DNA of 27,389 nucleotides from a phage. Positions 11,935 to 27,389 of this stretch are shown here, piece by piece. Position numbers and translations under genes: made by a program. Every line of letters begins with the position of its first letter. Within the stretch, counting starts at the first letter, position 1. The notes under the pieces were generated by a model. It was not told where the DNA came from. It did not search any database and was given only the letters and a program-made list of their open reading frames with translations. Where the stretch lies: NCBI GenBank assembly GCA_011967385.1, contig GCA_011967385.1_4516.1. One strand, written 5' to 3'.

Positions 11935-13248
11935 TCAAATAAAATGGACGTCAAAACGACCACGAGTTGTGCCGACATACAATAGTTGTTTAGCTAATTC
12001 TGAATCGGCATAATGGATACAAGGTGTATAAACAAAGGCCGTGTCAACAGACATACCCTGAGCCTTATGGAAGGTTGATACTGGTAGTGCCTTCACCTTA
12101 GTGAACATACGTTTAGCATCCCAGAATTCGCTCCATGGAGCTTTACCACCTTTATTCCAGAATTTGTATGTTTCTGCTGTCTTAGCCAAAAACAAATTGA
12201 ATTTATAAAGCTCTTCTTCAGAAGAAATAACCTTTATATCCTCGCGGACGTATTCTTCATCATCCCCATATGTTTCTACTGTAAGATTCCAGTATCGTAT
12301 CATATATTCGCCTGAAACACCACGTGCTTTAACGAATGTAGACGTTTCTACAGCATCTCGAATACGAACGAATTGCCCGTTGTTGAAAAGCATTTCGGTC
12401 ATATTTTTACCATCTAGCTTATATGTCTTAGTAAATGGCTCTTGTAGAACAATGACCTCGTCTTTAATAAATGGTTTTTCTGTTTCAAGAAGTTTTCGGC
12501 GAATAATTGAATTCAACTTGTCAACCGACTTATTTGTGAATGCCATCATTCGATTTTCGAAAAGGTCTTCAGGAGTTTTAACGACATTAAAATAGTTCAT
12601 CATATACGATTTAAGGTCTGTATATCCATGAACACCATGCCCGTCAACTACTTTATCATAAATCCATTTGCCATTACGAATATCGGTCGCAACATCAATA
12701 ATTGGTGCATTGCTACGTTTAACTTCTGTAAGGTTGCATTGCACGAAGTCTTTGTGAGTGAAGAAAGGACTTAGATACGCAGTTGATTCGCCGGGGTCCA
12801 CTGGACGAATCTGACATCGGTCACCAATTCCAATTACTGTACACCATTTAGGGATACTAGCTAACATTATTTTAAACAGAGAACGGTCACACATTGACGC
12901 TTCATCAAATAACAGTACACGACACAAGGCTAAGTCGGGAACCTTTTTCTGTTCAAATAATACGTTTTCTTCGTATGTAGTTGGGTTGATTTTAAGAATG
13001 CTATGAATAGTCGATGCTTCTTGTCCAGCAAGTTTGCTTAGAACCTTTTTAGCAGCGTGTGTTGGTGCTGCTAAAATAATACCTGATTCTCCAGAAGAAA
13101 TAAGGGCTTCAACGATGAATCTAGTAAGGGTTGTTTTACCCGTACCAGCAGGTCCATTAATAGTTACGTGATGTTTCTTTTCTTTAATAGCTTTCATAAC
13201 AACGTTGAAGGCGTTTTTCTGGCCGTCAGTCAAATCATCAAATGTCAT
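11935..13248 (-). CDS. dda: Dda DNA helicase (SF1B)
   Basis: 437 aa; Walker A GPAGTGKTT; size and synteny match T4 Dda (439 aa). Confidence 0.9.
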   Translation of the reverse strand: MTFDDLTDGQKNAFNVVMKAIKEKKHHVTINGPAGTGKTTLTRFIVEALISSGESGIILAAPTHAAKKVLSKLAGQEASTIHSILKINPTTYEENVLFEQKKVPDLALCRVLLFDEASMCDRSLFKIMLASIPKWCTVIGIGDRCQIRPVDPGESTAYLSPFFTHKDFVQCNLTEVKRSNAPIIDVATDIRNGKWIYDKVVDGHGVHGYTDLKSYMMNYFNVVKTPEDLFENRMMAFTNKSVDKLNSIIRRKLLETEKPFIKDEVIVLQEPFTKTYKLDGKNMTEMLFNNGQFVRIRDAVETSTFVKARGVSGEYMIRYWNLTVETYGDDEEYVREDIKVISSEEELYKFNLFLAKTAETYKFWNKGGKAPWSEFWDAKRMFTKVKALPVSTFHKAQGMSVDTAFVYTPCIHYADSELAKQLLYVGTTRGRFDVHFI

Positions 13249-13558: not shown

Positions 13559-14305
13559 TTAACCTTTAATCAGTTGGAATAATGATGCGCTAAGTGGTAA
13601 GCCGCGTTTCAATTTTAATTTACCAATGAAACCAATCTTTTCAAAACGTTGCAAACCTTGGATAACTTTATCATATGTATCGAAAAGCGATTCAGCGTCA
13701 GTTAATTTAGTTTTAGTTTTCCAGTCAGAGCCTTTAAGAAGAACGTTGAGTTTAGTAAGTTCATGGCCTTCTGCTTGATGTGAGCCATTAATGCGTGCTT
13801 TCAAAGCAACAATTCTAAGTTTAGATTCGTTAGATAAAGGTTGATTTTTCATCATGTTAGCCATATGCTTAACACGATTTTCACGTTTTGCTCGGATTTT
13901 TAAAATATTACCATAAACCTTTTTAATTTGGGCCCATTTCTTCTCATCAAGATTAAGTTTCTCTACTTTACGGACAGAAGGATTAGCGATACGTCTTGCA
14001 ATAGCATCACGTTTCTCAATAAGTTCTTCTAATGTTAAATCGGAACGAGCCGTATTATATTTTTTCTTAACAGGGATAACATTACCTTTAATGTAGCCGA
14101 TATCGTTATTAAAACGTTCTAAGGATAATTTCTCACCTTCAACAGAGTTATTGAAAGATTCACCTGAGTAAGCGCAGACCTTTTGATCAAGAATGTTTTT
14201 AAGGTAATTAAAGTCTAAGTTAAAATCCTTAGAGCGTCTCTTCGCAGAAGCTCTGGTGTGGTCAAGACGACGATTGATTTTGTTAATTTTATTATTTGAT
14301 AACAT
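13559..14305 (-). CDS. Basic, Lys/Arg-rich protein, 248 aa; position and size compatible with T4 Srd, unverified
   Basis: ORF track; synteny dda - dda.1 - srd in T4; no motif-level confirmation. Confidence 0.45.
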   Translation of the reverse strand: MLSNNKINKINRRLDHTRASAKRRSKDFNLDFNYLKNILDQKVCAYSGESFNNSVEGEKLSLERFNNDIGYIKGNVIPVKKKYNTARSDLTLEELIEKRDAIARRIANPSVRKVEKLNLDEKKWAQIKKVYGNILKIRAKRENRVKHMANMMKNQPLSNESKLRIVALKARINGSHQAEGHELTKLNVLLKGSDWKTKTKLTDAESLFDTYDKVIQGLQRFEKIGFIGKLKLKRGLPLSASLFQLIKG

Positions 14306-14457
14306 AATATTTTCCTCTGTCTTACGGACGTTAGGTCATTTAGCTGATAAGCTTATAATATCATGCCCTCAGGTAGTATACATTCTTTTTTCATAAAATG
14401 CTTTAATTTTTTATGTGTTATAATGGTTCTGAGTTCCATCCGGTTATTCCAATCCAG

Positions 14458-15066
14458 TCAGTAACTGACAATAGTCAGATTCCAGATTGTATAATTTCCG
14501 TCTTGAATAATAGAATCTACACGCAGTGTAGTCCCTATAGGGAGCATAAATTCACATTCGTCAGATATAAGTCTAGCATTAGACCGTCTTGTCGCTTCAG
14601 GGAAAGCTCCATTGAACTCACAAGATGGCGCAGCCAGAATCATATTAAGCATATGTTCACGGAAGTTGAAAGCAAATGGTGCATCTTTGATACAGAACAT
14701 ATTAAATGTTCCATAAAAATTATACGAAGCGAAGTTACGTGCTACACCAAACACTGGGCTGAAGCTCATTACTCTGTCAAATTTAATAATACTACCAATG
14801 CCTTTATCATCGAGTGTGGCCATAGTTTTCTTAGAGATTCCACGATACATTGTCTCAGGAACAGAAGACGACCAATTTCTACGAACGATTGAACTTAACT
14901 CCTGTTGAATACAGTCTGGCTTGTTTTCCATACACTGCCACAGTATACTTTGTTCAATGTCGCTGAATTGACTATCAATTTCGTACTGCAATACATCTTG
15001 ATATTCGGGGTTTTGAGCACGACGAACCATTTCTTCAATTTCACACTCGTTATACGGCATAAACAT
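14458..15066 (-). CDS. Mono-ADP-ribosyltransferase of the ModA/ModB type
   Basis: 202 aa; ordered R ... S-x-S ... E-x-E candidates (MYRGIS, SFSPVFG, SDECEF) typical of R-S-EXE ADP-ribosyltransferases; size and position match T4 modA/modB; only one copy present. Confidence 0.6.
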   Translation of the reverse strand: MFMPYNECEIEEMVRRAQNPEYQDVLQYEIDSQFSDIEQSILWQCMENKPDCIQQELSSIVRRNWSSSVPETMYRGISKKTMATLDDKGIGSIIKFDRVMSFSPVFGVARNFASYNFYGTFNMFCIKDAPFAFNFREHMLNMILAAPSCEFNGAFPEATRRSNARLISDECEFMLPIGTTLRVDSIIQDGNYTIWNLTIVSY

Positions 15067-15094
15067 TTAGGTTTCTCCTGTGGTTGATAAAGGT

Positions 15095-15123
15095 ATAGTA
15101 TCATCGTCGGTAGAGTTTGTACA
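15095..15123 (-). promoter_or_regulatory. Early-type promoter with extended -10 TGaTACTAT, upstream of the Mod-type ADP-ribosyltransferase gene
   Basis: Minus-strand GTGTACAaactctaccgacgaTGaTACTAT. Confidence 0.5.
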
Positions 15124-15313
15124 CTAAAAATTCAACATTTTCAAATGAATGATTTTGTATAATCGAGATAAAGGGTCATATTCTAAGTCTTCAATTTCCA
15201 CAATCTCAAATCTAGAGATACTTGAGACCATGTACTCTTGTTCAGATTGACATGTCATGATAGACCTCCATTTAAAGATAAGCCTATCATAACACGAGAG
15301 GAGGGAATGTAAA

Positions 15314-15466
15314 CTACTTTTTAAGCTTTCCGACTAAAGGACCATCAGGACCAGGTTGTTCTAACATGAATGGTGATGCTTTAAGAAGCAATGCCAACCC
15401 TTTCACCATTCGATACCATATCTCAAAGTCCTTTTTCTTGGTTTCCACTAAGAATTGCTCTTTCAT
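15314..15466 (-). CDS. Small hypothetical protein, 50 aa
   Basis: My translation; ATGA start/stop overlap with the upstream gene suggests translational coupling. Confidence 0.35.
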   Translation of the reverse strand: MKEQFLVETKKKDFEIWYRMVKGLALLLKASPFMLEQPGPDGPLVGKLKK

Positions 15467-15651
15467 TTCCAAGGACTCCATGGTGGCGGGTCGTCATAAT
15501 AAGAGGCTAGGTCTTTCAGGACTTCTAATGGTAAACTAAAGCCATGACGTTGTATAATACTATCTAGTTCATCAACAAGTTCACTACGATGCACTTTAGG
15601 AGCCTCAACTTCAGGCTCGTCAAACATACTCATAAGGTCCATATTATTCAC
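15463..15651 (-). CDS. Hypothetical acidic protein, 62 aa
   Basis: ORF track; overlaps the end of the upstream gene by 8 nt. Confidence 0.4.
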   Translation of the reverse strand: MNNMDLMSMFDEPEVEAPKVHRSELVDELDSIIQRHGFSLPLEVLKDLASYYDDPPPWSPWK

Positions 15652-16108
15652 CGAGATAAAAACTAGCAGGTTCAGAGAATGTTTCTAGTGCTACACCTTT
15701 TGTCTTAAAAAATTTCCAAATAGCTCGTTGCAAATGGGTTAAATCTGCTAATGATGTAATAAAGTATTTTTTGGCAAAATACTTATGGTCTCGCTTTTCA
15801 AACAGGTCTAAACGCTTTTCAGGATTCACATAAACAGCATTTTCTGTAGATTCGTACCCTAAATCCTTTATGCCTTCTTCAAGACTAAATGGAGAATTTT
15901 TAGAATGAGTAATAGCTCCAACTCGCTCTACACGAATTTTGTAACCTTTAGGAATCTGCAATTTACAGAATTCTTCTACGATATATTGCGGATTATTTAG
16001 ACTTTTGTTAATGAGAATAGCTATTTCTAGTGGAGTCTTATCTTCTACTGGTATATGTTTAAATGACTTGGCTTCAAGCAAATACATTTTAAATAACATA
16101 GCATCCAT
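15644..16108 (-). CDS. Hypothetical protein, 154 aa
   Basis: ORF track; start codon directly follows the stop of a 58-aa ORF (TAATGGATG). Confidence 0.55.
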   Translation of the reverse strand: MDAMLFKMYLLEAKSFKHIPVEDKTPLEIAILINKSLNNPQYIVEEFCKLQIPKGYKIRVERVGAITHSKNSPFSLEEGIKDLGYESTENAVYVNPEKRLDLFEKRDHKYFAKKYFITSLADLTHLQRAIWKFFKTKGVALETFSEPASFYLGE

Positions 16109-16110
16109 TA

Positions 16111-16287
16111 TAATTTCCTCAATGGTTCACCCATATAAAGTTTTACAATACGTTCGCCTTCATCTTCGACGAGCTTTTCTTCATGTTTCTGGAGTTCTTT
16201 GACCATTTTCTCTTCAAAAACATCTAACCAATCTTCCGGTCCGACTCCATCATTCAAGCTTTTAAACCATTTTACTATTCTGTTCAT
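16111..16287 (-). CDS. Small hypothetical protein, 58 aa (MNRIVKWFKSLNDGVGPEDW...)
   Basis: My translation; packed between neighbouring minus-strand genes. Confidence 0.35.
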
Positions 16288-16520
16288 TCACAGCTCCCTG
16301 AGCTTGAACCACAATCAGAATAACTTGTCCCAGAATCACCAGGCCAAGACGATACGTATGAATGATTATAACTTGAAGAGTTTGAAGCAGACTTAAGACG
16401 AATAACTTCTTCCATCATGCCGTCACCAATGTATTCCCAACTTTTTTCATGTGTATTAGGAATAGGCATCATCCCTTCGCCTGGTTTAGCAGCAAAAAAC
16501 TTCTTCAGCATCGTAAGCAT
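16284..16520 (-). CDS. Hypothetical protein with a Ser/Cys-rich C-terminal tail; start ambiguous
   Basis: ORF track 16284..16595; the upstream part overlaps the preceding gene, so the start is set at an internal ATG. Confidence 0.4.
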   Translation of the reverse strand: MLTMLKKFFAAKPGEGMMPIPNTHEKSWEYIGDGMMEEVIRLKSASNSSSYNHSYVSSWPGDSGTSYSDCGSSSGSCE

Positions 16521-16713
16521 TAATTGTTCCTCGAACAAAACGAACACCACCATCGTCCCAACGGATTTCGGCATTAAATTTGACGTCTTCACCATCCATC
16601 ATGAATGAGTGTACGACTACATCATCGTAATATCCAAGACCGTATTTCAACGAAACTTCTTGAGCAATCAAAGCACCTAATGTGTTATTAGGTTTAATCC
16701 AACGATTTAACAT
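16486..16713 (-). CDS. Hypothetical protein, about 75 aa (start at MLNRWIKPNN)
   Basis: ORF track 16486..16782; strong SD AGAGGAGA before the internal ATG; promoter at 16742-16771. Confidence 0.5.
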   Translation of the reverse strand: MLNRWIKPNNTLGALIAQEVSLKYGLGYYDDVVVHSFMMDGEDVKFNAEIRWDDGGVRFVRGTINAYDAEEVFCC

Positions 16714-16741
16714 ATTGTTCTCCTCTTGAGTAGGTAAGAAT

Positions 16742-16771
16742 ATCTTAACACAGTTTTTAGTGGTTGTAAAC
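16742..16771 (-). promoter_or_regulatory. Early-type promoter: -35 GTTTAC, extended -10 TGtTAAGAT
   Basis: Minus-strand GTTTACAaccactaaaaactgTGtTAAGAT upstream of ORF 16486..16713, immediately after the soc terminator. Confidence 0.45.
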
Positions 16772-16777
16772 TGTAGA

Positions 16778-16808
16778 AACAAAAAAAAGGAATCCCGAAG
16801 GATTCCTT
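16778..16808 (-). terminator. Strong rho-independent terminator after soc: 9-bp stem, UUCG loop, 9 U then GUUU
   Basis: Minus-strand AAGGAATCCttcgGGATTCCTTtttttttgttt. Confidence 0.7.
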
Positions 16809-16815
16809 AAATTAT

Positions 16816-17052
16816 TTAACCACTTACTGGTGTAGGGGTAAACATTGCGGCATTCTTAGTTTTCCAAGTTGCTGCATCAGAAACGACATCAGAATAAGCT
16901 GCCTTTTCTGATGGAAAGATTTGGTAATGAGAATCTGCAATCCGATGTTCGTTTGAATAAATCTCAAACGGTACAGAAACTTCCATACCTTTAACTTCTT
17001 TGCCTTCACCAGCAGGATGCGTAAAGGTTTTGATGTTTACATAACCACCCAT
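16816..17052 (-). CDS. soc: Small outer capsid protein Soc
   Basis: 78 aa; GYVNIKTF ... HYQ.FPSEKAAYS matches recalled T4 Soc; AGGAG SD; followed by a strong terminator. Confidence 0.8.
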   Translation of the reverse strand: MGGYVNIKTFTHPAGEGKEVKGMEVSVPFEIYSNEHRIADSHYQIFPSEKAAYSDVVSDAATWKTKNAAMFTPTPVSG

Positions 17053-17097
17053 AATTAACTCCTTTGTTGTTTAATTACAGGTGTATTTATAACTTAA

Positions 17098-17619
17098 TTA
17101 GTAACCATTATCCTGACGTTCAAAGTTGTGTTGGTTTTTCAAGTAGTAAAGTTTAAAGATTTCTTCAGCCGAAAGACCTAGACCTTGGAACATATTCAGA
17201 ACAAAGTGGAGGATATCAATCATTTCGAATTTAATTTCGAGCTGGTCTTCAGGAGACAACTCATCAATACGACGATTACGGAATTCAGCATGTTGTGCTT
17301 TCCAAGGCTTCCATACACTGCTGGCAGCTTTTTCACCATTGCTCATACCACCAAGTGAAGTCAGCAGTTCACGGAATTCATCATCAATATAATCTTTCTG
17401 ATTACGCAGCCAATCAACAACATCACCAGCAGTAGCCAATTCGTCAGGATGTTTGTTATGTTCAGGCTTGTCATTTGCCAGACGAACCTGTAAAGATTTC
17501 TGCATATCAAGCATTACCTGCAGTGGGTCTTTATCTTCGTGAATCAGAGCATTAAAATAAGCTTCTTCTGCTTTATCAACACCAGAAATAAGTTGTGAAC
17601 ATTCGTTAAAGTGTGCCAT
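17098..17619 (-). CDS. 56: dCTP pyrophosphatase (dCTPase, MazG-like)
   Basis: About 173 aa from the ATG at 17617-17619 (MAHFNEC...), AAAGGA SD; DPLQVMLDMQ, IDDEFRELLTSLG, EIFKLYYLKN match recalled T4 gp56. Confidence 0.85.
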   Translation of the reverse strand: MAHFNECSQLISGVDKAEEAYFNALIHEDKDPLQVMLDMQKSLQVRLANDKPEHNKHPDELATAGDVVDWLRNQKDYIDDEFRELLTSLGGMSNGEKAASSVWKPWKAQHAEFRNRRIDELSPEDQLEIKFEMIDILHFVLNMFQGLGLSAEEIFKLYYLKNQHNFERQDNGY

Positions 17620-17708
17620 TATTTTTCCTTTCAATTCAGTATAAGAGAGTTAATTCTAACATTAATTTTATAAAGCGTAATAAATAATAAGGTAACTAAG
17701 GAGATATT

Positions 17709-17906
17709 ATGTTTAAACTTCCATCGTTAATCAATGCTATTAAAGGCAATAAAAAGAAAACTGCTATCGCTGCAATAGTTGTAGGTGGCATTATTTCATG
17801 GAACTTCGGGATTGCACCGGTGTTAGTTGCTAATGGTATTATAGTTCCTTCTGTTCCGTTGGATACTGTAGTTGATTTGGCCTTTGCTATTATAGGGCTT
17901 GTTTAA
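17709..17906 (+). CDS. Small hydrophobic membrane protein, 65 aa, on the opposite strand to all neighbours
   Basis: Plus-strand ORF with canonical SD AAGGAG 7 nt before the ATG; two predicted hydrophobic segments; stop overlaps the primase stop on the other strand. Confidence 0.5.
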   Translation: MFKLPSLINAIKGNKKKTAIAAIVVGGIISWNFGIAPVLVANGIIVPSVPLDTVVDLAFAIIGLV

Positions 17907-18925
17907 ATCTTCGAATAACGAGATAATCTCATTTTAGCATGCAACCCACTTGAAATATTCTGTTTCATATATTCTAAAATTTCTTGTGGTGTTGCATTTT
18001 CTTTCATTACCATATCATTAACATCCTTTGAACTCCATGGAGCTCTATCCCAGAACATAACGCGTTCGCCTGCATCTACTAATCGCTTCATACGAGCTAT
18101 AGTATCTGGATGCCTAGGTTCATTATCCATTACCCATACCCGACGTTCTTTAAATGGTACCACATCTAAATCTATTGAGCCGCCTGTAATAGCGATTGCA
18201 TTGGGTATGAATAAACTATCAATAGGGCCTTCCATTACCCAGACGTCTCCTTCCTTAACACGTTCAACACCATAAATTTTTGTTGCAGATTCAAAAGCTT
18301 TAATAGTGATATATTTTTGAGGAGCATCTTTGCGAAGTGCACGTCCTTGAAATGACTCAGCCTTCCCGTCTTTATTAAAAATAGGTATCACTAAACGCGG
18401 TTCAGGAATCTCTTTCTTATACGTACCAGGTTGAATTTTGTTAACCAATTTAGGCCATTCTAATGTGAACCATAATCTGTTCCACGATTCTTTAGGAATA
18501 CACCGAGACTTAACATATTTCACAATAGGATGCTCTTCAGGCAGCTTGTCCAGACGAGAACAAGACGGCAAAGAATTTATAGTCTTTTTCTCCGGTTCTG
18601 GTTTATGTTCAGGAACCTTTTCAATCTTTGGTTCCATTCTAGCTTTTTCTTTACGAACTTCCATTAGATATTCACGATAAAGATCTTCGTCATACTCTTT
18701 TAAGTATCCGGAAATTGTATTATGATATTGACAGTTATAGCAATGCACATTACCTGGAGTACCGCCATAATACCATCCGCGAGCTTTCATTGCATCTGTC
18801 TGAGAGTCGCCACAAACTGGACAACGAAACGTTAATTTAAATGTGCTTGAATTATTGATTTGTCTAAAACGAGGTAGGTGAGAAAACGCACGATAAGCAA
18901 ATTCATTATCTATCCATTCAGCCAT
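17903..18925 (-). CDS. 61: DNA primase
   Basis: 340 aa; WIDNEFAYRA, zinc-finger FRCPVCGDS, GWYYG and C-terminal MAKMRLS.Y.KI match recalled T4 gp61. Confidence 0.9.
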   Translation of the reverse strand: MAEWIDNEFAYRAFSHLPRFRQINNSSTFKLTFRCPVCGDSQTDAMKARGWYYGGTPGNVHCYNCQYHNTISGYLKEYDEDLYREYLMEVRKEKARMEPKIEKVPEHKPEPEKKTINSLPSCSRLDKLPEEHPIVKYVKSRCIPKESWNRLWFTLEWPKLVNKIQPGTYKKEIPEPRLVIPIFNKDGKAESFQGRALRKDAPQKYITIKAFESATKIYGVERVKEGDVWVMEGPIDSLFIPNAIAITGGSIDLDVVPFKERRVWVMDNEPRHPDTIARMKRLVDAGERVMFWDRAPWSSKDVNDMVMKENATPQEILEYMKQNISSGLHAKMRLSRYSKI

Positions 18926-18964
18926 AGTATTCTCCAGAGGCCTTAAATTAATAAGGCCATCATA

Positions 18965-19459
18965 TCACAACTTATTGATATTTACTTTAATTCGCTTTCT
19001 TTTCTTGGAAGGAATTTGTTCTGGACCTTTATTTACGACTGCACCTGTAGTTGTTCCTGATGCAATAGCTTGAGGGCTGCCACCTGAATCACCAGCCACC
19101 ATATCCTCAAATAAAGGGAGTTCTTTAAATATTTCTTTCTGCTGTTCTTCTGTAATGTTATAGCGGGATGATACAGCACTCCAGGCAGACATCATTGAGG
19201 CCATTCCATTAAGTCCTGGAACAGTGCTCATCATTCGCTTCATTGAACGAACTGAAGCATGAAAAGGTGTATAAGCCGCTTTCTCTTCGGGAGTAGAAGG
19301 ACGTTTAAGAACACTTCCACGTTCGTCGATTATTTTGGCTTCGTACGCTTTCCATTCTGTAAAAGGTTTTTGCATTAGTCGAATAAACTTATATGCATAA
19401 ACTGAATCTATTGCAGTGTTAATAATACCCATAGGTACCTCCTGAGTATATTTAATCAA
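18965..19459 (-). CDS. Hypothetical protein, 164 aa, basic C-terminus
   Basis: ORF track; lies in the 61.x position. Confidence 0.55.
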   Translation of the reverse strand: MIKYTQEVPMGIINTAIDSVYAYKFIRLMQKPFTEWKAYEAKIIDERGSVLKRPSTPEEKAAYTPFHASVRSMKRMMSTVPGLNGMASMMSAWSAVSSRYNITEEQQKEIFKELPLFEDMVAGDSGGSPQAIASGTTTGAVVNKGPEQIPSKKRKRIKVNINKL

Positions 19460-19649
19460 TCACAAAGATCGCTTTATCACCGTTCGCATCTGTGACTTCA
19501 TATGTAGTGTCTTCATAGTGCGGAATATTCCAAATTACACCATCATTAGCTTTTACGCTAATATGGCATTGGTGTTTTGAAACAACTTCATAGTCTTCAA
19601 AACTTGTAAAAACACTAATTTTAGAACCAGTGCAAATTGCAGTAGTCAT
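19452..19649 (-). CDS. Hypothetical protein, 65 aa
   Basis: ORF track; tightly packed with flanking genes. Confidence 0.45.
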   Translation of the reverse strand: MTTAICTGSKISVFTSFEDYEVVSKHQCHISVKANDGVIWNIPHYEDTTYEVTDANGDKAIFVID

Positions 19650-19650
19650 T

Positions 19651-20310
19651 TTAACCTCGATTCATAAATGCATTAAATATTTGGTCATCAACAGAAATTT
19701 CTAGTTCGACTTCAATTGCTTCAGCCTTTTCTTCAGGTGGTAATTCGTATCCACACACTACAATTTTTTCATCGATATCAAAATATACAGAAGCAATACG
19801 ATTAATGTTATTTTCAGTTAAGTCTAAATCAACATCAACATCTTTTTGACCTACACTTAAAGGATAACTAATACGGGTTATTTTATTATCTTTAACAAAG
19901 AGTCCACCAACATACTCTGTACTACGTTTGAAGTTTACACGTTTCCGAATTGAAAGATATGATACATCTTTACCGTGAGCTCGGCTCATAGGACATAATG
20001 AATAGCTAGAATAAGAGATATCAAATCCTACGCCTTCAACATGTGCCAGAGTATCATGAGTAAACCAATTATAGTCGTATGCCAAATCCATTAAATTATA
20101 ATATGTGAACGGAACTGGATTAACGTCATACGTTGTACCTTTAAAATCTGCCCAGGCAACGATTTCGTTATCTTTAACAATTACAAAAATTACACCAATA
20201 TGGTATCCGTTATTATTTTCATTCGGCGTTATATTATAACATTGTGCATTAGGAAATTTACCATATTTAAACGGCGCGTTTTTGTGCATATAATAAATCA
20301 TATTATTCAC
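19651..20310 (-). CDS. Hypothetical protein, 219 aa (position and size like T4 61.2)
   Basis: ORF track; synteny only. Confidence 0.55.
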   Translation of the reverse strand: MNNMIYYMHKNAPFKYGKFPNAQCYNITPNENNNGYHIGVIFVIVKDNEIVAWADFKGTTYDVNPVPFTYYNLMDLAYDYNWFTHDTLAHVEGVGFDISYSSYSLCPMSRAHGKDVSYLSIRKRVNFKRSTEYVGGLFVKDNKITRISYPLSVGQKDVDVDLDLTENNINRIASVYFDIDEKIVVCGYELPPEEKAEAIEVELEISVDDQIFNAFMNRG

Positions 20311-20596
20311 CTGTGATTTCGGTTACGATATCTTTGTTATCGAAATTAGGGTCACAATACAAAACATAGTTGTACTGCATGATACCACCAGACTTAAGTT
20401 GTTCAACAACTTTATTAACCATATTAGGACGGTCTCGTTTAGTGATGTTCATGATATCAGAGAAGATTTGTTGTTCAACATCTTCTTGATTTGCAGTCAT
20501 TGACCACTCACAGAGGTCTTTATCATAACCTGCCGTAACTGGAGCCGGTGCACATGATACTGCAAGTAAGATTGCTGCCAATGATAACTTTTTCAT
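20303..20596 (-). CDS. sp: Spackle periplasmic protein (inhibitor of tail lysozyme, superinfection exclusion)
   Basis: 97 aa; signal peptide MKKLSLAAILLAVSCAPA; GYDKDLCEWSMTA...IMNI.KRDRP...LKSGG.MQYNYVLYCD matches recalled T4 Sp. Confidence 0.8.
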   Translation of the reverse strand: MKKLSLAAILLAVSCAPAPVTAGYDKDLCEWSMTANQEDVEQQIFSDIMNITKRDRPNMVNKVVEQLKSGGIMQYNYVLYCDPNFDNKDIVTEITGE

Positions 20597-20625
20597 TTTA
20601 ACTCCTTAGTTGATTTGATAGGACT

Positions 20626-20654
20626 ACTATACTATAGTCCATCTATAATGTAAA
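20626..20654 (-). promoter_or_regulatory. Early-type promoter: -35 TTTACA, 17 nt, -10 TATAGT, upstream of sp
   Basis: Minus-strand GTTTACAttatagatggactatagTATAGT. Confidence 0.45.
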
Positions 20655-20659
20655 CAAGT

Positions 20660-20908
20660 TTATTCTTTTTCGCGAATAATAATTACTTGTTGAGGCTGCT
20701 GAGCAGATTTCTTTTCGGCAACGATAGACCAAATTAAAGTTCCAATCCAACCAACCATCGTCCAGTTAAAGAGCAAAGATACAAAGAAGATTGCTGTTGT
20801 GCTTTTTGTGCCACGAATAAGTGCGATTACCCAAGGCAACATGTAAATGATGATTGAACCAATACCTGCGATTAAAACTGCTACTGAACTAGCTACGAAT
20901 AATTCCAT
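20660..20908 (-). CDS. Small inner-membrane protein, 82 aa, two hydrophobic segments
   Basis: ORF track; hydrophobic composition; own promoter at 20937-20966. Confidence 0.55.
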   Translation of the reverse strand: MELFVASSVAVLIAGIGSIIIYMLPWVIALIRGTKSTTAIFFVSLLFNWTMVGWIGTLIWSIVAEKKSAQQPQQVIIIREKE

Positions 20909-20936
20909 GTTAATTTCCTCTTGATTTGTTATGTTT

Positions 20937-20966
20937 ATAGTATCTTGTTTTAACTTTGGCGTAAAC
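20937..20966 (-). promoter_or_regulatory. Early-type promoter: -35 GTTTAC, -10 TACTAT, upstream of the 82-aa membrane protein gene
   Basis: Plus-strand tatagtatc ... gtaaac architecture shared with the other promoters. Confidence 0.4.
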
Positions 20967-20969
20967 CAA

Positions 20970-21338
20970 TTAATTAAATTTGTTTAAACGTTCAATACAC
21001 TGGACGTAGTTATTCGCGATTTGTTTCTGGGTAGGCTCTTTACCAGTTGTTTCAATATAGCGAATGAATGCGATTTCAGTAGCCTGTAAGCAATGTTCTT
21101 TAACGCGTTGTTCTTTTGTCAATGCTACAGTATCAGAATCACGATAACGTTGAGCATGGGCATCAGCTTGAATCATTCGATTACCTACAGTAACCGGGTC
21201 TTCCACTTCAACTTTAGGTTGGTTGTACTGTTTAACATTCGGGTTATAAATCAATTGGCCAACATTATTAGGGATAAAGCCGTGAGCACCACATCCAGTT
21301 AATCCGAATACCATTGCTAAAGCGATTAATTTTTTCAT
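20970..21338 (-). CDS. Predicted lipoprotein, 122 aa (signal peptide with lipobox LTGC)
   Basis: N-terminus MKKLIALAMVFGLTGC; promoter at 21367-21396. Confidence 0.6.
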   Translation of the reverse strand: MKKLIALAMVFGLTGCGAHGFIPNNVGQLIYNPNVKQYNQPKVEVEDPVTVGNRMIQADAHAQRYRDSDTVALTKEQRVKEHCLQATEIAFIRYIETTGKEPTQKQIANNYVQCIERLNKFN

Positions 21339-21366
21339 TTCAATTTCCTCTGTAGTTGATAGAAAG

Positions 21367-21396
21367 ATAGTAACACAGTATGCGGTGCTTGTAAAC
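21367..21396 (-). promoter_or_regulatory. Early-type promoter: -35 GTTTAC, -10 TACTAT, upstream of the lipoprotein gene
   Basis: Plus-strand gatagtaac ... gtaaac; same architecture. Confidence 0.4.
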
Positions 21397-21409
21397 AGCT
21401 ATTTTAAAA

Positions 21410-21598
21410 TTATCGAAAATCTGCTTCAAAAACTTTCTCGTCATTAACAAATGCTTTAACTAATGCATTGTTCACTTCAGCAAGTTGTACCGCCACCCAC
21501 TCGATTTCTTCACGATCACCTGATAACATAATATCTTTAGTGAACATCTCACCGCTTTTAAACCAACCGATAAAAGTAACTTTAGTTAATTTGCTCAT
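21410..21598 (-). CDS. dmd: Dmd antitoxin (inhibitor of host RnlA/LsoA RNase toxins)
   Basis: About 62 aa from the ATG at 21596-21598 with GAGGA SD; KVTFIGWFK...MFTK...VQLAEVNNALVKAF..D.KV.E.D.R matches recalled T4 Dmd (60 aa). Confidence 0.75.
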   Translation of the reverse strand: MSKLTKVTFIGWFKSGEMFTKDIMLSGDREEIEWVAVQLAEVNNALVKAFVNDEKVFEADFR

Positions 21599-21837
21599 AT
21601 TTCCTCGCAAAATGCCCATTCAGCGTGATAAACTGTAGCACCTTTAGTATCATTCATTTGAACTACGTCTACCGGAGAAATTACTCGATAGAGACGTGGT
21701 TCACCTCCATAAGAGCGTGCTGCTCGTCCTGCATAAATCTTTGCTAAACCGATATCTTCAGTAAAGAATACACGATTCAAGTTTTTCTTACGTCCGGTTT
21801 CAGACAGAACTCCTGTTTCTTCAGGAGGACAAAGCAT
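21595..21837 (-). CDS. Hypothetical protein, 80 aa; possibly the downstream part of a frameshifted gene
   Basis: ORF track; weak SD; a 46-aa ORF with a good SD (ATG at 21909-21911) overlaps its 5' end in another frame. Confidence 0.4.
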   Translation of the reverse strand: MLCPPEETGVLSETGRKKNLNRVFFTEDIGLAKIYAGRAARSYGGEPRLYRVISPVDVVQMNDTKGATVYHAEWAFCEEI

Positions 21838-21937
21838 ATTTTCGATGTTAGCTGAACTACTTGAACCGTGATAAAAATCTTAAATTCTGCTTTACAATCG
21901 ATGGTTTTCATTTTGTTCTCCAGTAGTTGATAGGTTT

Positions 21938-21966
21938 ATAATAACACAACTACTGGAGAAGTAAAC
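21938..21966 (-). promoter_or_regulatory. Early-type promoter: -35 GTTTAC, -10 TATTAT
   Basis: Plus-strand tttataataac ... gtaaac upstream of the ORFs at 21595-21911. Confidence 0.4.
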
Positions 21967-22341
21967 TTAAAACCGTAATTTAGATATATCTGCGTTGATT
22001 TCGCTTTGATTTGCGTCGTATGCAATTAAACGAACCGCTTTAGATGGGTCATTCAATGCATAGAAATGATGGAACATTGCTCGAACGATATCACCATTTA
22101 CGAGTTCTACCTGGATGGGAGAACCTTTTTCTAGTTGGAAATGTTCATAAGCTTTGATGGTTCGCAGATAATCAAGTTTTTGATTTCCGGCTCCAACAAT
22201 TTGTACGATACGTTTGCCCATGTTTTCCATACGAGATACAATAGTTTTAGGAGCAAGAATAACGTAGGTTGCCAACGGAGAAACTACTTCAACAGTTGTG
22301 TTTTCGGTGATTGCAGTAAAAATTGCTTGAGACATATTCAT
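21967..22341 (-). CDS. Hypothetical protein, 124 aa
   Basis: ORF track; promoter at 22371-22399. Confidence 0.55.
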   Translation of the reverse strand: MNMSQAIFTAITENTTVEVVSPLATYVILAPKTIVSRMENMGKRIVQIVGAGNQKLDYLRTIKAYEHFQLEKGSPIQVELVNGDIVRAMFHHFYALNDPSKAVRLIAYDANQSEINADISKLRF

Positions 22342-22370
22342 AATGTTTTCCTCTTGGTTGGTGTAAGTAC

Positions 22371-22399
22371 ATCATATCATGCCTAGAGGAAGATGTAAA
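22371..22399 (-). promoter_or_regulatory. Early-type promoter: -35 GTTTAC, 17 nt, extended -10 TGaTATGAT, upstream of the 124-aa gene
   Basis: Minus-strand GTTTACatcttcctctaggcaTGaTATGAT, immediately downstream of the hairpin after gene 41. Confidence 0.45.
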
Positions 22400-22405
22400 C
22401 CCCGA

Positions 22406-22423
22406 AAGGAGACCGAAGTCTCC
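22406..22423 (-). terminator. UUCG-tetraloop hairpin after gene 41; the minus-strand U-tract is short, so it may be an RNA stability element or weak terminator
   Basis: Minus-strand AGGAGACttcgGTCTCCTttcgggg; the better T-run lies on the plus-strand side. Confidence 0.4.
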
Positions 22424-22429
22424 TTTTTA

Positions 22430-23872
22430 TTAAAATTTTAACTCATTGGCTAAGCTATCTAGGTCAGCACGTGTTGCTTTGGCTTTACCTACGCGTTCCG
22501 TACGATTCACCTCTGCCTGACGCATCTGAGCACCTGCGTTTTCATTTACTGTGTTAGGTGTGTTCATGCCTTCTTGCTCAATCTCAACCCATTTCTGATT
22601 GCCTTTACGTACACCCATCAAGAACTTGTTCCACTTATTCTTATCACCATATCGTGATTTGATTTGTTTGATAAGTTGTTGTTCAGCTTGTGCAAGTTCT
22701 TCAGTTTCAATTACAGCCAACATGAAATCTGCCGTTGCTGGTAAACCTGCTGATTCTGCAATATCACTCATGTTCATGTCTGAAGCATCCCATGCTGCAC
22801 GTCCTACTTGAGCTGCAGTCCATAGAACTGTTTCAGATTCTACTGCTAATGCACGAAGTTCTTCTGCGATAGCTTTAACTAATGTGTAGCTATTTTCAGT
22901 GTAAACTCTGATACGACAAGACCCACAAATACCTAAGTAATCGACTATGATTACAGACGGCACAAAGTTCTTCTTAAGTTTCAATTCATTAAGCAATGCA
23001 CGGAATGTATTAGCATTAGCTCCACCAGTAGGATACTGTTTGACCACTAAACGTCCTAATGTGGATTTTGAACGCCATTTTTCCATCTTGGCTTTATATT
23101 CAGCATAAGATACGTTACCATCATCGATATCATCGAGTGATACGTCAAGCATGTTTGCATCTATACGCTTAGCACAAACTTCTTCGGCCATTTCCATGGA
23201 AATATAAAGAACATTATGTCCTGTTTGAAGATAATCTGCAGCAAGTGAACAAAGGCCTAAAGATTTACCAACGTTAACACCAGCCATTAAAACGTTCAGT
23301 GTACCGGTTTCAGCACCACCTTTGGTGATTTTATTCAGAATGTTTAATTTGAACGGGACCTTACGTGCTTTATTTAGATAAGAAAGCCAGCGTGCTTCAT
23401 AGTCTTCCATCCAGTCGTGACCAACATAACTATCAAACGAAATTGAAAGTGCTTGACGCATAATATCAGGAATAGCTCCTACGTCAGGCATTTTCTTGTT
23501 ACGTTGTTCTGGAGGTAGTTCGGCATTAGTCTGAATCTCAATGATTTTGGACGTGGCATTATACATCGCTTTTTGCTGGACATATTTCTCAGTTTCTTTA
23601 ACCAACCATTCGTGGTCTTCAGGAGTATCAGCCAATTTTTCAATTAGGTCTGAAGTTCCTTTATATTCGGCTTCAGTTAAAGAACTGTTATCTAAAGCCA
23701 CCTTTAATACATTGATGGATGGCATTGCATTATATTCGTTAACGTGGCTCTTTATAATTTTAAAGACATTTTTTGCCGGTCCACGCTCAAAATACTCAGA
23801 ATCCATATAAGGCCAGACCTTAGAAAAATAAGCCTGGTCATATACGAGATGAGACAAAATAATTTCTACCAC
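22430..23872 (-). CDS. 41: Replicative DNA helicase (DnaB-like), GTG start
   Basis: 480 aa; Walker A GVNVGKS; size and synteny match T4 gp41 (475 aa). Confidence 0.92.
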   Translation of the reverse strand: MVEIILSHLVYDQAYFSKVWPYMDSEYFERGPAKNVFKIIKSHVNEYNAMPSINVLKVALDNSSLTEAEYKGTSDLIEKLADTPEDHEWLVKETEKYVQQKAMYNATSKIIEIQTNAELPPEQRNKKMPDVGAIPDIMRQALSISFDSYVGHDWMEDYEARWLSYLNKARKVPFKLNILNKITKGGAETGTLNVLMAGVNVGKSLGLCSLAADYLQTGHNVLYISMEMAEEVCAKRIDANMLDVSLDDIDDGNVSYAEYKAKMEKWRSKSTLGRLVVKQYPTGGANANTFRALLNELKLKKNFVPSVIIVDYLGICGSCRIRVYTENSYTLVKAIAEELRALAVESETVLWTAAQVGRAAWDASDMNMSDIAESAGLPATADFMLAVIETEELAQAEQQLIKQIKSRYGDKNKWNKFLMGVRKGNQKWVEIEQEGMNTPNTVNENAGAQMRQAEVNRTERVGKAKATRADLDSLANELKF

Positions 23873-23881
23873 GATAACTCC

Positions 23882-24244
23882 TTAAAAGAATTTAAATTTT
23901 TTCTTGGTTCGTTCATTAAAAGCTTGTTGTACCTGCATTGTAACACATTTTTCAACATGCGGCGCAAGTTCTGCTTTTCTGTCCTGGTCAAGAACTGCAA
24001 AGTCCATTACGATTTTACCATCAACCCAATCTAGTTTTGTAATATAGACTATATGATGAGAACCGTCTTCAAGTGTAATCAGAATCTCTTGAATGACATT
24101 TTCCATTGCTGAACGGATAATTTTAAGAGATTCATTAAACACTCGTTCTTTGCGAATGTCCTCCCCTTCCGAAGAAGGGGATTCATCAACGATTTCTAGA
24201 TTTAAATCATCGAGATTATTCATCGAAATCTTCCATTTCGTCAA
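23882..24244 (-). CDS. 40: Protein in the position of T4 gene 40 (head vertex assembly chaperone), 120 aa
   Basis: ORF track; lies between 41 and uvsX as in T4; sequence identity not verified. Confidence 0.55.
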   Translation of the reverse strand: MTKWKISMNNLDDLNLEIVDESPSSEGEDIRKERVFNESLKIIRSAMENVIQEILITLEDGSHHIVYITKLDWVDGKIVMDFAVLDQDRKAELAPHVEKCVTMQVQQAFNERTKKKFKFF

Positions 24245-25154
24245 GGTCGTTTTCTATATCTGCTGCAGATGGAGCATCAGAAGTTTTAACCGGAACTTTA
24301 GTTGTTGCTTTGCAATTAATAAGGTCGTTAACTGCGTCATCAACTTCTTTAATAGAAGAGATAGCACCTAGTTTATATTTAGTTTCAATTGCATCTCGGA
24401 AAGGTTTGTGTTTAAACAACGGTCCCCAGAATTCTACACAATCGGTAGCTTTAGCGCGCCATGATTTCTCTTCACGAATCATTTCACCTGTTTCTTCGTC
24501 AAGGAATTCACGAGCATACCAACCGGCTTTAGGTTTAACTACAAAACCAATTTCAGTTGCCATTTCTAGCAAGCCACTGAATGGGTCAATACCGCCATCA
24601 AAATTAACCGTGATCGGGAAAGTAGATTTCTCTTTAACCGTACGAGATTTTTCTGCTTTCAACGTGAAGTCATAACCGGTCAATTCTGTACCTTCTTTAA
24701 CCTGACGTTTAGAGATAAAGAATACAGTGTTAGCAGAGTAAAGAATACCTGTACCACCACCCATAATCTCTTTAGGATATAGTCCGCCGATTTCCATTGC
24801 TGTATGGTTGATTGCAACACACGGAATATCTTTAATAGTCAGATACGGGGTCACAATACGGAAAAGAGATTTAAGTGCCTTAGCACGAGACATATCACCT
24901 ACGACTTTCTCGTTCAACGCATCTTCGGTTTCTTTCTTAGATGCAGTATTACCGATTGAATCGATAAAGATAATAACTTTATCACCGCGTTCAATTGCAT
25001 CAAGCTGATTAGTCATATCAACTTTAAGTTGTTCGACGGACTGAATTGGTGTATGAACTACACGGTCTAAATCAACACCCATCGAACGGAAGTAAGATTC
25101 TGAAGCACCAAATTCCGAATCATAGAACAAACAGATTGCATCATTATATTTTAC
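24216..25154 (-). pseudogene. uvsX: uvsX recombinase (RecA-like) homolog lacking the N-terminal 80 or so residues, including the Walker A motif; no ATG start
   Basis: Homology to recalled T4 UvsX starts at ...YNDAICLFYDSEFG (T4 ...YPDAVCLFYDSEFG) and continues to the acidic C-terminus; Walker B VIIFIDSIGN present; in-frame TGA (25155-25157) and TAA (25161-25163) directly upstream. Confidence 0.7.
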
Positions 25155-25220
25155 TCATGTTTAAAAGATAAGATGATTATATACTAAGGGTTATACAGCA
25201 TTTAAAACTTTAAATGGCTC

Positions 25221-25769
25221 TTAACGAGCCCATTTAATGATTTCTGTAATCAAATTATTACGTTCGCTTGCATTAAATCCTATAACTTTGTTAGAACCAT
25301 CATGATTAAGTAATTGATACGTTTGGATTTTGTTATGAATTGCAAACTCTTCAAAATATGAAATGACTGTATTAAAACCGAATGAAGACAAAGTAATAAG
25401 GTCGTCTTCAAAGCTTTCAGTCATTTCGTTACGTGTTAAAATAATTGTGAACACATCATGGTTTTGACAAAGACGAACATAATCCTGTTCATAAACGTCA
25501 AGAACCGAGTCCGCATCTTGTCGAATACGTCCATAAACCCAGTTACTAATATATCCACGGTCTAATAGATAAATCTTAGTAGGGTCTAAATAATTCAACA
25601 TCGTTTCGAAACAGCCAACTTCATTTCGAGACTTAACATCGAAACGCCCATCAACTGTTCGTTTAGGGAAATCAATCTTTACATATCTTTCACTAATTTC
25701 CATTATGTCATTAATGAAAGTTGTTTTACCGGCATTATCTGGGCCATCTACTAAAATAATTTTAGCCAT
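25221..25769 (-). CDS. P-loop nucleoside/nucleotide kinase-like protein, 182 aa
   Basis: N-terminal Walker A ILVDGPDNAGKTTF; LLDRGYIS resembles the DR(Y/H) motif of thymidylate/dNMP kinases; GAGGA SD; start 1 nt after the upstream stop. Confidence 0.65.
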   Translation of the reverse strand: MAKIILVDGPDNAGKTTFINDIMEISERYVKIDFPKRTVDGRFDVKSRNEVGCFETMLNYLDPTKIYLLDRGYISNWVYGRIRQDADSVLDVYEQDYVRLCQNHDVFTIILTRNEMTESFEDDLITLSSFGFNTVISYFEEFAIHNKIQTYQLLNHDGSNKVIGFNASERNNLITEIIKWAR

Positions 25770-25770
25770 T

Positions 25771-26670
25771 TTATTCCTCGATTACGACATCTTCGTATTT
25801 AGGTATATTATACGGCGAAGAAATTAAAGCATTAAAGTAGATGAACTCACCAAGACCTGGATGGAATACTTCTTCAGGATTTTCGAAATATTGAATCTTC
25901 GGACGTCCTTTAAGAATTTGATAGTACTCAGTTTTAGTTGGATTAAAAATTCGAATCAGCGCTTCTTCAGGATACTTATTTCTGTCGAAACTATTATTTG
26001 GATCGGTTATATAAAGTGGTTGACCTAATTGAATTGCGCATTCAACCACTTGTTCAAAACGATAGCATGGGTCACTAATTCGAAATGGATGAAAAATACC
26101 ATCTAGATGAATAGGAGCCAAATCACCTACAAGACGCTGCATGACGGAAGGACGTATAACTTTCTGCGTTACGATAATCTTATTACCATCTGCACCTGCG
26201 TTAACCAGCACTTCTTTTTGACGTTCATTCAACACAGTAGTTTGAAGTGAACGATTAACCGACAACATGTCGGTTTTTAAGAATTCATCAATATAAAAAC
26301 GTGGTTTATTAGGGTCTGCAGTGATATTGAAATTGAATTCTACATCAAAAGCGCCATCATATCCAGTGATATCTGTGATTAGAAAATCACAATCATAATA
26401 AGCAATTAATGAATCAACCACAAATTCATTTTCAGACCAGAAATATTTACGAGTGTTATACGCGTTATCTTTATACCATAATGGAACAAACTTAAATTCC
26501 GGGAAAAGACGTTCACATTCTTTAATATCAGATGCATTACGTGGATATGTAATCACATCACCCGGATTAGCACGGTGCAAATGAAGTTGGAAGTTGCCAT
26601 CCTTAAGGATAGCATACTGTCCAGTTTCATAAGACCGCATACTCAAGATTGGTACGCGGAAAATAGCCAT
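25771..26670 (-). CDS. Orphan protein, 299 aa, no motif recognised; occupies the position of beta-glucosyltransferase in T4
   Basis: ORF track; ATG overlaps the stop of the upstream gene (TAATG). Confidence 0.6.
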   Translation of the reverse strand: MAIFRVPILSMRSYETGQYAILKDGNFQLHLHRANPGDVITYPRNASDIKECERLFPEFKFVPLWYKDNAYNTRKYFWSENEFVVDSLIAYYDCDFLITDITGYDGAFDVEFNFNITADPNKPRFYIDEFLKTDMLSVNRSLQTTVLNERQKEVLVNAGADGNKIIVTQKVIRPSVMQRLVGDLAPIHLDGIFHPFRISDPCYRFEQVVECAIQLGQPLYITDPNNSFDRNKYPEEALIRIFNPTKTEYYQILKGRPKIQYFENPEEVFHPGLGEFIYFNALISSPYNIPKYEDVVIEE

Positions 26671-27389
26671 TAGTCAAGGAATCCTTTAACATAATCAAAA
26701 TCACGTTCAAACACATGGGCACTTACCATGGTATGAGTATAATCACCAACTTCTACACCGCATTCGTTAGCGATATAATGAAGTAATTTTCCTTGGAGAT
26801 AAAAATCCAACTGCATAACAACAGCACAGTTCTGAGAACGCATATGGCAGTGTGTATAAAGCTTACCATCACGAATATAATAAGTAACTGAGTCAGTACA
26901 TGGATATTCAAGCGTTTCGTCTGAATCAAGCAAAGCCTGATCAGAACTTTCTAGAATTTGGAACACAACTCTTCGGGAGTTAGGCTTCTCTTTAAGTTCT
27001 TTTAGAAGAGCTGGTAATTGGGCCGCAATGCGAGGACCATAGAAAGTGTTGAAGTTCGCCGGCAAAACATCTGATTTTGGTTTAGAAATAAATTTAGCGA
27101 CATTAGGATATGCCTTAAACGCTTCTTCTGCGTTGGTACCACCAGAAATCATAAACTTCCAGAAGTCTTCGGCATATTCATAAGAGATGCGGTTAATACG
27201 TGGATCGGTCATTTTGAATGATGATGGAGTGTCAACAACTACTGTCATAGACCCAATTTCATTACAACGTCCAATACGAGAATCAGTTACGAATTCCGGG
27301 TTTTCTAAAATTTCACGATTGACTGCTTTAAATGCGGTTTGAAAATCTGCGGCTTTGATATATTTCATTGTGTTATGTTTTCCCATGTT
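26670..27389 (-). CDS. Thymidylate synthase / dCMP hydroxymethylase family enzyme, partial (N-terminus beyond the window end); gene 42 position
   Basis: NSRRVVFQ, active-site region PCTDSVTYYIRDGKLY...HMRSQNCAVVMQLDF and HVFERDF align with TS-family motifs (catalytic Cys, RS.D); appears more divergent from recalled T4 gp42 than its neighbours are from their T4 orthologs. Confidence 0.7.
   Translation of the reverse strand, partial: NMGKHNTMKYIKAADFQTAFKAVNREILENPEFVTDSRIGRCNEIGSMTVVVDTPSSFKMTDPRINRISYEYAEDFWKFMISGGTNAEEAFKAYPNVAKFISKPKSDVLPANFNTFYGPRIAAQLPALLKELKEKPNSRRVVFQILESSDQALLDSDETLEYPCTDSVTYYIRDGKLYTHCHMRSQNCAVVMQLDFYLQGKLLHYIANECGVEVGDYTHTMVSAHVFERDFDYVKGFLD

Follow-up and report, generated by a model that had tools for sequence, protein, structure and literature searches.

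The window analysed here is a 27,389-nucleotide stretch of phage DNA that makes up one whole contig of the draft assembly of an Escherichia coli isolate sequenced together with a Mosigvirus. It derives from an RB69-like T-even phage of the genus Mosigvirus and is colinear with ~150 phage records at 95-99% identity; the colinearity extends from the rIIA side, across genes 41, 40 and uvsX, as far as the gene-42 position. The closest phage record among the matches listed was that of Shigella phage ESh27 (98.0%), with none at 99% or above. The gene 41 product is NCBI protein EEU1768907.1, which is labelled "[Escherichia coli]".

The features of the locus are collected in Table 1. Upstream of uvsX lies a three-gene module, and the RB69 counterpart of its ThyA-like enzyme, RB69p048, is the reported 5-hydroxy-dCMP synthase of RB69 (PMC13326640). 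In all Mosigvirus relatives examined, the kinase/arabinosyltransferase/ThyA-like module is followed by a spacer of 98-100 nt and then by a complete uvsX of 390 aa. In the window the spacer survives to a point 5 nt beyond its second TATAAT, the border of the module itself is untouched, and uvsX is incomplete.

Table 1. Features at the uvsX locus, listed from the upstream module to gene 41 (positions in the window)
Feature	Position	Strand	Description
Thymidylate-synthase-fold enzyme (ThyA-like), RB69p048 homologue	26670-27386	-	238 aa; intact
RB69p046:47 homologue, predicted arabinosyltransferase 1	25771-26670	-	299 aa; intact; phrog_3891; PMC13326640
Nucleotide-kinase-like protein, RB69p045 homologue	25221-25769	-	182 aa; intact; phrog_761 thymidylate kinase, 4e-45; PMC13326640
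Weak terminator-like hairpin	25216-25230	-	GGCTC-GTTAA-GAGCC and T-rich tail; over the kinase stop; terminator in the SA79RD annotation
Middle-promoter-like element	25176-25203	-	MotA-box-like AAATGCTGTA (25203-25194), 12-nt spacer, TATAAT (25181-25176); intact; sequence match only
In-frame stops in the uvsX leader	TAA 25163-25161, TGA 25157-25155	-	Terminate the frame 5′ of the remnant
Second TATAAT	25143-25148	-	Inside the retained repeat; -10 of a T4-type middle promoter in the SA79RD annotation
Deletion junction	25138-25151	-	Single retained copy of the 14-bp repeat, AAATATAATGATGC; BLAST segments against ESh27 overlap exactly here
uvsX remnant	24216-25137	-	Native codons 85-390 and TAA stop (24216-24218); Walker B and UvsX C-terminal domain present
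Gene 40, head vertex assembly chaperone	23882-24223	-	ATG overlaps the uvsX stop (ATGAATAA); intact; 100% identical to relatives
Gene 41, replicative helicase	22430-23872	-	480 aa from GTG; intact; downstream of uvsX and gene 40

The uvsX gene lacks its 5′ part

The ribosome-binding region, the ATG and approximately the first 84 codons of uvsX are gone, among them those for Walker A (about residues 59-67), and certain native sequence starts at I85 (25137). When a T4 UvsX sequence was compared with the window by tblastn, the only match covered residues 80-388 (25151-24219; 68% identity over 311 residues), and residues 1-79 found no match anywhere in the window. Likewise, the similarity of the remnant to the Pfam RecA model starts only at model position 85 of 262, while the UvsX-specific C-terminal model, PF21134 (T4_UVSX_C), is matched in full (7.7e-39). 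The complete Mosigvirus UvsX comprises 390 residues, with an alignment to the crystal structure of T4 UvsX (3IO5) over residues 28-358 and the P-loop AAPSKHFKT at residues 59-67. The remnant lacks this P-loop and retains Walker B (VIIFIDSIGN) and the native stop. Of the hallmarks of a RecA-family recombinase it has Walker B and the C-terminal domain, and it is missing Walker A and a start codon with a ribosome-binding site. These searches bear out the original prediction that uvsX is truncated at its 5′ end, with Walker A lost and Walker B and the C-terminus intact.

The minus-strand frame GTA AAA TAT AAT GAT GCA ATC TGT TTG TTC... translates to VKYNDAICLFYDSEFG and is open to the native stop (24218-24216). 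The TGA and TAA that had been described in this frame upstream of the remnant were found in the sequence at the positions given in Table 1. Between the remnant frame and the stop of the 182-aa kinase-like open reading frame (25223-25221) lie 63 nt, which had been said to encode nothing resembling UvsX. The claim that the remnant contains no in-frame ATG was not entirely accurate, since there are two, one at 25082-25080, corresponding to M103 in full-length UvsX, and one at 25016-25014, in addition to an in-frame TTG at 25130. No Shine-Dalgarno pairing was detected for any of these three starts; duplex free energies were +0.2 and -0.4 kcal/mol for the two ATGs and +0.6 kcal/mol for the TTG, compared with a background mean of -1.6 and a value of -3.3 kcal/mol for native uvsX.

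No UvsX able to bind ATP can be made from this allele, which is a uvsX-null pseudogene. With its 5′ end, Walker A and any usable start missing from the gene, the phage is most likely without functional UvsX.

A 266-bp segment is missing between two imperfect direct repeats

Anchored string comparison with WFL6982 showed that exactly 266 bp are missing from the window. When queried with 2.8 kb around the site, all close relatives gave two separate matches, which together span ~266 bp more than the query, and a 151-bp query centred on the junction occupies 151 nt in the window and 417 nt in each of the best 40 records. The endpoints were taken from the anchored string comparison together with the overlap of the BLAST segments, as a MAFFT alignment smeared the gap across the junction.

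The missing segment extends from AAATATAATGATGC in the uvsX leader, a sequence that contains TATAAT, to AAATATAAAGATGC in uvsX codons 80-84. In relatives the leader, 29 nt before the ATG, reads ...GAGTAAAATATAATGATGC followed directly by CTATGGAAAAATACAATG..., and codons 79-86 read ...ATGAAGAAATATAAAGATGC followed by AATTTGTTTG...; across the junction the window reads ...GAGTAAAATATAATGATGC followed by AATCTGTTTG.... The repeat is imperfect (13/14), and its two copies are exactly 266 bp apart in 6/6 Mosigvirus relatives. Neither filler nor inserted DNA was detected at the junction, and both flanks align to relatives right up to the repeat. The original prediction had placed the beginning of UvsX homology at KYND; these residues are encoded by the leader copy of the repeat, which resembles codons 80-84 (KYKDA).

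All endpoint pairs at least 30 nt apart were enumerated in the 1,322-nt locus of ESh27. Among these 817,281 pairs the observed one is the only flush repeat with at least 13/14 identity, and the longest exact repeat in the locus does not exceed 10 nt. That the endpoints coincide with the only near-perfect 14-bp repeat of the locus marks the junction as homology-directed rather than a random cut. The locus shows what is expected of a short-repeat deletion, namely a parental repeat at both endpoints with one copy kept, endpoints biased towards homology and a clean junction.

At the mismatched position the window has the T found in the upstream copy, and the exchange therefore took place within the last 5 nt of the repeat (GATGC), or else the mismatch was corrected. 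The retained T is also the reason that the frame reads K-Y-N-D-A instead of the native K-Y-K-D-A. Perfect identity 3′ of the mismatch amounts to only 5 nt, which is short even for minihomology events.

Leader elements and downstream genes are retained

Middle promoters of T4 have the consensus (a/t)(a/t)(a/t)TGCTTtA located 12 ± 1 bp from TAtaaT (PMC2988021). The leader contains AAATGCTGTA-N12-TATAAT, which by sequence match has a MotA box at this distance upstream of a good sigma-70 -10 element. A generic scan of the intergenic region for sigma-70 promoters and terminators called nothing, the hairpin over the kinase stop included; for the promoter such a null is expected, because a MotA-type promoter has no -35 element. 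Further along the leader, the block AAAATATAATGATGCCTATGGAAAAA..AATG is kept upstream of uvsX even in distant T4-like phages without segA, and this conservation suggests that the block is probably regulatory. We also considered whether the leader copy of the repeat could correspond to PuvsX, the experimentally mapped promoter of T4 (start 23752). This was rejected, as PuvsX lies within segA, a gene that Mosigviruses lack; for the same reason of position, PuvsX is not the positional homologue of the leader block.

Gene 41 has a strong Shine-Dalgarno sequence of its own. Because none of the promoter-like elements was lost, transcription probably still runs into the remnant and from there to genes 40 and 41, both of which are intact.

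No sign of decay in the remnant

The frame of the remnant is open without a break as far as the native stop. Compared with four relatives it differs at 20-31 codons synonymously, and its non-synonymous differences are confined to the K→N change at the repeat mismatch and one A→T change relative to SA79RD only. The remnant protein is identical to UvsX of ESh27/ESh15 over residues 103-390 (BLASTP), with no non-synonymous difference from codon 83 on. Only two substitutions in the remnant are private to the window, both synonymous, a rate of 0.22 per 100 nt compared with 0-0.42 in the flanking intact genes. Neither the codon comparison nor the private-substitution rate revealed relaxed constraint in the remnant. 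This lack of decay indicates that, measured against the ~2% divergence among these phages, the deletion happened very recently.

A short-repeat deletion and its counterparts in T4

We consider it highly probable that a recent 266-bp short-repeat deletion, in an RB69-like phage co-sequenced with an E. coli isolate, converted uvsX into a null pseudogene. A single event joined two near-identical 14-bp direct repeats, one in the leader and the other at uvsX codons 80-84; the proposed route is either a double-strand break whose resected ends annealed or slippage during replication, which would leave the same footprint. Lost in the event were the ribosome-binding region, the ATG and codons 1-84 with the P-loop, while the promoter-like elements and genes 40 and 41 were spared. 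In T4, UvsX-dependent pairing of short identities rejoins resected ends after CRISPR cleavage (PMC8262927). The gene destroyed in the Mosigvirus encodes UvsX, the very recombinase that is reported to carry out such joins in T4 (PMC8262927).

T4 deletions are flanked by short repeats (PMC8262927). The Mosigvirus allele resembles the minihomology deletions of T4 (rII, the 39-56 region and CRISPR escape; PMC8262927) in that the parental repeat stands at both ends and one copy is kept; it further shares with them the absence of filler, a size of hundreds of bp and a target that is non-essential in the laboratory. While the minihomologies of the T4 CRISPR-escape deletions are exact and 3-8 nt long (PMC8262927), the Mosigvirus repeat is longer (14 nt) but matches at 13/14 positions, and the Mosigvirus case, unlike those deletions, has no known triggering break. 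The case illustrates cleanly how an imperfect 14-bp repeat can direct a deletion, and many relatives document the parental state. That such events occur and that uvsX is dispensable is well known; this particular allele, and the fact that it arose in nature, are new, though they come as no surprise.

Expected phenotype and possible selection

An engineered T4 uvsX.del phage is viable, and uvsX is non-essential in T4 (PMC8262927). T4 also tolerates transposon insertions in uvsX, at a cost in fitness (bioRxiv 10.1101/2025.11.20.689424), and Δ-uvsX mutants of T6 have been propagated (PMC13096335). Loss of uvsX is non-lethal yet costly in T4; by extrapolation from T4 and T6, the Mosigvirus carrying the deletion would be expected to be viable, with a reduced burst and with impaired recombination, recombination-dependent replication and repair. 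The allele is comparable to the laboratory uvsX mutants of T4 and T6 (amber, T4 uvsX.del Q52-G211 and T6 Δ-uvsX), in all of which the function of the RecA core is lost and the flanking genes are kept. In contrast to these laboratory mutants it is spontaneous and comes from the sequence data of an E. coli isolate, and whereas some of the laboratory alleles remove an internal segment, the Mosigvirus deletion takes the 5′ leader together with codons 1-84.

The junction appears to be private to this phage. A 151-bp query was not matched across the junction in the phage records inspected, which include about 180 Mosigvirus records, and exact and degenerate junction patterns had no match in the IMG/VR viral contigs, the JGI metagenome contigs or the GTDB genome contigs. 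The window therefore documents a naturally occurring uvsX-null T-even phage in bacterial-isolate sequence data, and no other examined record carries the deletion. If recovered, the phage would be a natural mutant for the study of T-even life without recombination-dependent replication, of suppressors (e.g. in uvsW) and of selection by defence systems. In T4, mutations in uvsW are reported to suppress the defects of uvsX mutants (Yonesaki & Minagawa 1987).

It is unlikely, in our judgement, that the deletion was selected or provoked. It could have been an escape from a recombination-sensing defence, or the trace of a phage that survived a nuclease cut through minihomology joining; speculatively, the deleted segment might have been cut by CRISPR, by restriction or by a SegA-type homing endonuclease of a co-infecting T-even phage. 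Several observations are compatible with such a history. T4 survivors of CRISPR cleavage carry repeat-flanked deletions of this kind (PMC8262927), and T4 segA sits upstream of uvsX at the same position, its product making a double-strand break in uvsX (PMC2988022). Escapers of Shedu among T-even phages lose uvsW (bioRxiv 10.1101/2023.08.10.552762), UvsX-like genes are mutated in Evangelion escapers (bioRxiv 10.64898/2026.06.25.731849), and the phage lived with, or contaminated, a bacterial isolate culture. However, neither a trigger nor a defence system was identified in the window, and the allele occurs in one genome only, so that there is no recurrence to indicate selection. Were selection the true cause, the allele would represent a natural case of a T-even phage that sacrificed its recombinase to evade immunity or the homing endonuclease of a rival; interest in the allele would rise only if the loss of UvsX proved to be selected.

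Support for the junction from a second assembly

An exact-protein look-up with the 288-aa version of the remnant that starts at ATG retrieved one contig, of 16,196 bp, from the Logan assembly of SRA run SRR8786329; the 304-aa version that starts at TTG had no match in the same look-up. The Logan contig is identical to positions 14216-27389 of the window (13,174 bp, 0 mismatches or gaps), the junction included, while the ends of the two contigs differ. Reproduction of the junction by this independent assembly indicates that it is present in the reads.

It is quite improbable that uvsX is really intact and that the junction arose in the library or the assembly, from chimeric fragments or a spurious join. 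In favour of such an artefact, the phage is fragmented into contigs in the draft bacterial-isolate assembly, which suggests modest coverage; template switching in vitro would likewise favour short repeats; and both assemblies were built from one and the same read set. Nevertheless, two independent assemblers gave an identical junction inside unbroken contigs of 27 kb and 16 kb. From the way such assemblers work, a k-mer assembler should cross a junction at a 14-nt imperfect repeat only if reads truly span it, as would apply to a de Bruijn contig built with k=31, and an intact allele at comparable depth would be expected to fork the assembly graph on both sides. The remainder of the window is also clean, its genes being full length. 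The earlier proposal of an assembly error is accordingly disfavoured. For annotation and quality control, the truncated uvsX is best treated as a genuine pseudogene of one phage lineage and not as an error to "fix".

The lengths of rIIA, gp39, dda, gp61, gp41, gp40 and the modification enzymes equal those in ESh27/ESh15. One further frameshift was found in the window, a T6→T5 change at 21866-21884 in the RB69ORF040c homologue. It is also carried by BASEL phage Bas47, which identifies it as a population polymorphism rather than an error. The notion that the window is generally error-prone was rejected, given that its other sizeable genes are full length and that the sole other frameshift is common to Bas47.

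Split gene and module acquisition

The original prediction had also raised the possibility of a split gene whose N-terminal part lies elsewhere. We considered this in two forms: the N-terminal ~84 residues would be encoded elsewhere and the two parts would assemble, or a mobile element would have interrupted uvsX. Split or interrupted genes do occur in T4-like phages, as in the uvsX of IMGVR_UViG_2706796796 (see below), and the search for the N-terminus covered 27 kb of the genome. This explanation is nonetheless very improbable: the window contains no N-terminal fragment by tblastn, uvsX is contiguous in about 180 relatives, and the remnant is without a start codon that has a ribosome-binding site. 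No foreign open reading frame, intein, intron or endonuclease gene was found at the junction, where nothing has been inserted and where DNA was cleanly lost between two repeats that the parental arrangement already had.

That the truncation is a scar left by insertion of the upstream kinase/glycosyltransferase cassette has next to no probability, even though only 63 nt separate it from the cassette end, because the cassette is lineage-wide and stands beside intact uvsX with the same spacer in all relatives (PMC6024577), and because the window retains this spacer while the deleted DNA, leader plus coding region, lies entirely on the uvsX side. The earlier description of the site as a recombination scar therefore holds in the broad sense, but not its attribution to the acquisition of the cassette. 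The deletion is likewise no evidence that the RB69-type DNA-modification module disrupts uvsX.

A partial uvsX in the distant T4-like contig IMGVR_UViG_2706796796 was considered as a second truncation and rejected, as it represents a different phenomenon. The gene contains an intein-like insertion after residue ~214, starting GGG/CVVEG. Its frame is discontinuous too, but through DNA added in the middle of the gene, whereas the Mosigvirus remnant has lost its 5′ part with nothing inserted.

The uvsX leader and an interrupted uvsX in a distant phage

The block immediately upstream of the uvsX start codon, AAAATATAATGATGCCTATGGAAAAA..AATG, is kept in distant T4-like genera that lack segA (loci L007-L010, L019-L022 and L064, at approximately 4966-5000). 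In T4, the 3′ end of segA stands in its place. Conservation of the block across distant genera suggests that it is a putative conserved promoter or translation-control element.

In one distant T4-like phage, uvsX is broken after ...EIMGGG by approximately 1.3 kb of intein-like insertion starting CVVEGTKIQMSDG. After the insertion UvsX residues 185-386 continue in a different frame, and the segment 185-245 is present twice.

Coordinates of features in the window and in related phages
Feature	Location	Strand	Family
174-aa ORF	window 9126-9650; counterpart in ESh27 (L003) 12316-12829		
139-aa ORF, locally diverged	window 9710-10129	minus	
80-aa ORF remaining of RB69ORF040c homologue, internal ATG start	window 21595-21837	minus	
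Frameshift T6→T5, RB69ORF040c homologue	window 21866-21884	minus	phrog_2110
Leader block AAAATATAATGATGCCTATGGAAAAA..AATG, immediately 5′ of uvsX ATG	window 25138-25165		
Accessory ORF missing in window, 93 aa	ESh27 (L003) 20272-20553		
Accessory ORF missing in window	ESh27 (L003) 24854-25066		
Interrupted uvsX, distant T4-like phage	L027:5001-7558 (IMGVR_UViG_2706796796_000001)		

Differences from related Mosigviruses

While the RB69ORF040c homologue encodes 105 aa in most Mosigviruses, the window retains an 80-aa ORF. A T6 tract is present in nearly all of approximately 200 relatives. A private error of the window was considered for the T5 tract and rejected, since the BASEL phage Bas47 (AlbertHofmann) also carries T5. 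Together with the 80-aa product annotated in Bas46, this makes the change a shared polymorphism.

The 174-aa ORF is whole in both the window and ESh15, and lies in two pieces (110 aa and 82 aa) in Shigella phage ESh27. The ESh27 record carries an UNVERIFIED flag, so the split there probably stems from a frameshift or from a sequencing error. The 139-aa ORF shares 87-88% protein identity with its ESh27 and ESh15 orthologues, compared to 97-100% for its neighbours, and is a locally diverged allele, probably mosaic. Two small accessory ORFs of ESh27 are absent from the window (at 17096/17111 and 21417/21418), typical of small-gene presence/absence variation in T-even hyperplastic regions.

T-even phages in bacterial-isolate assemblies

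The window makes up one whole contig, 27,389 bp long, of an NCBI draft 'Escherichia coli' assembly (reads SRR8786329), and its gp41 is EEU1768907.1. Near-complete Mosigvirus genomes, in contigs of approximately 169 kb, are found in several further NCBI 'E. coli' assemblies (example proteins EHH5496310.1, ENB2373829.1 and ELV3995662.1). Virulent T-even phages thus recur in bacterial-isolate sequencing, by way of a carrier state or contamination.
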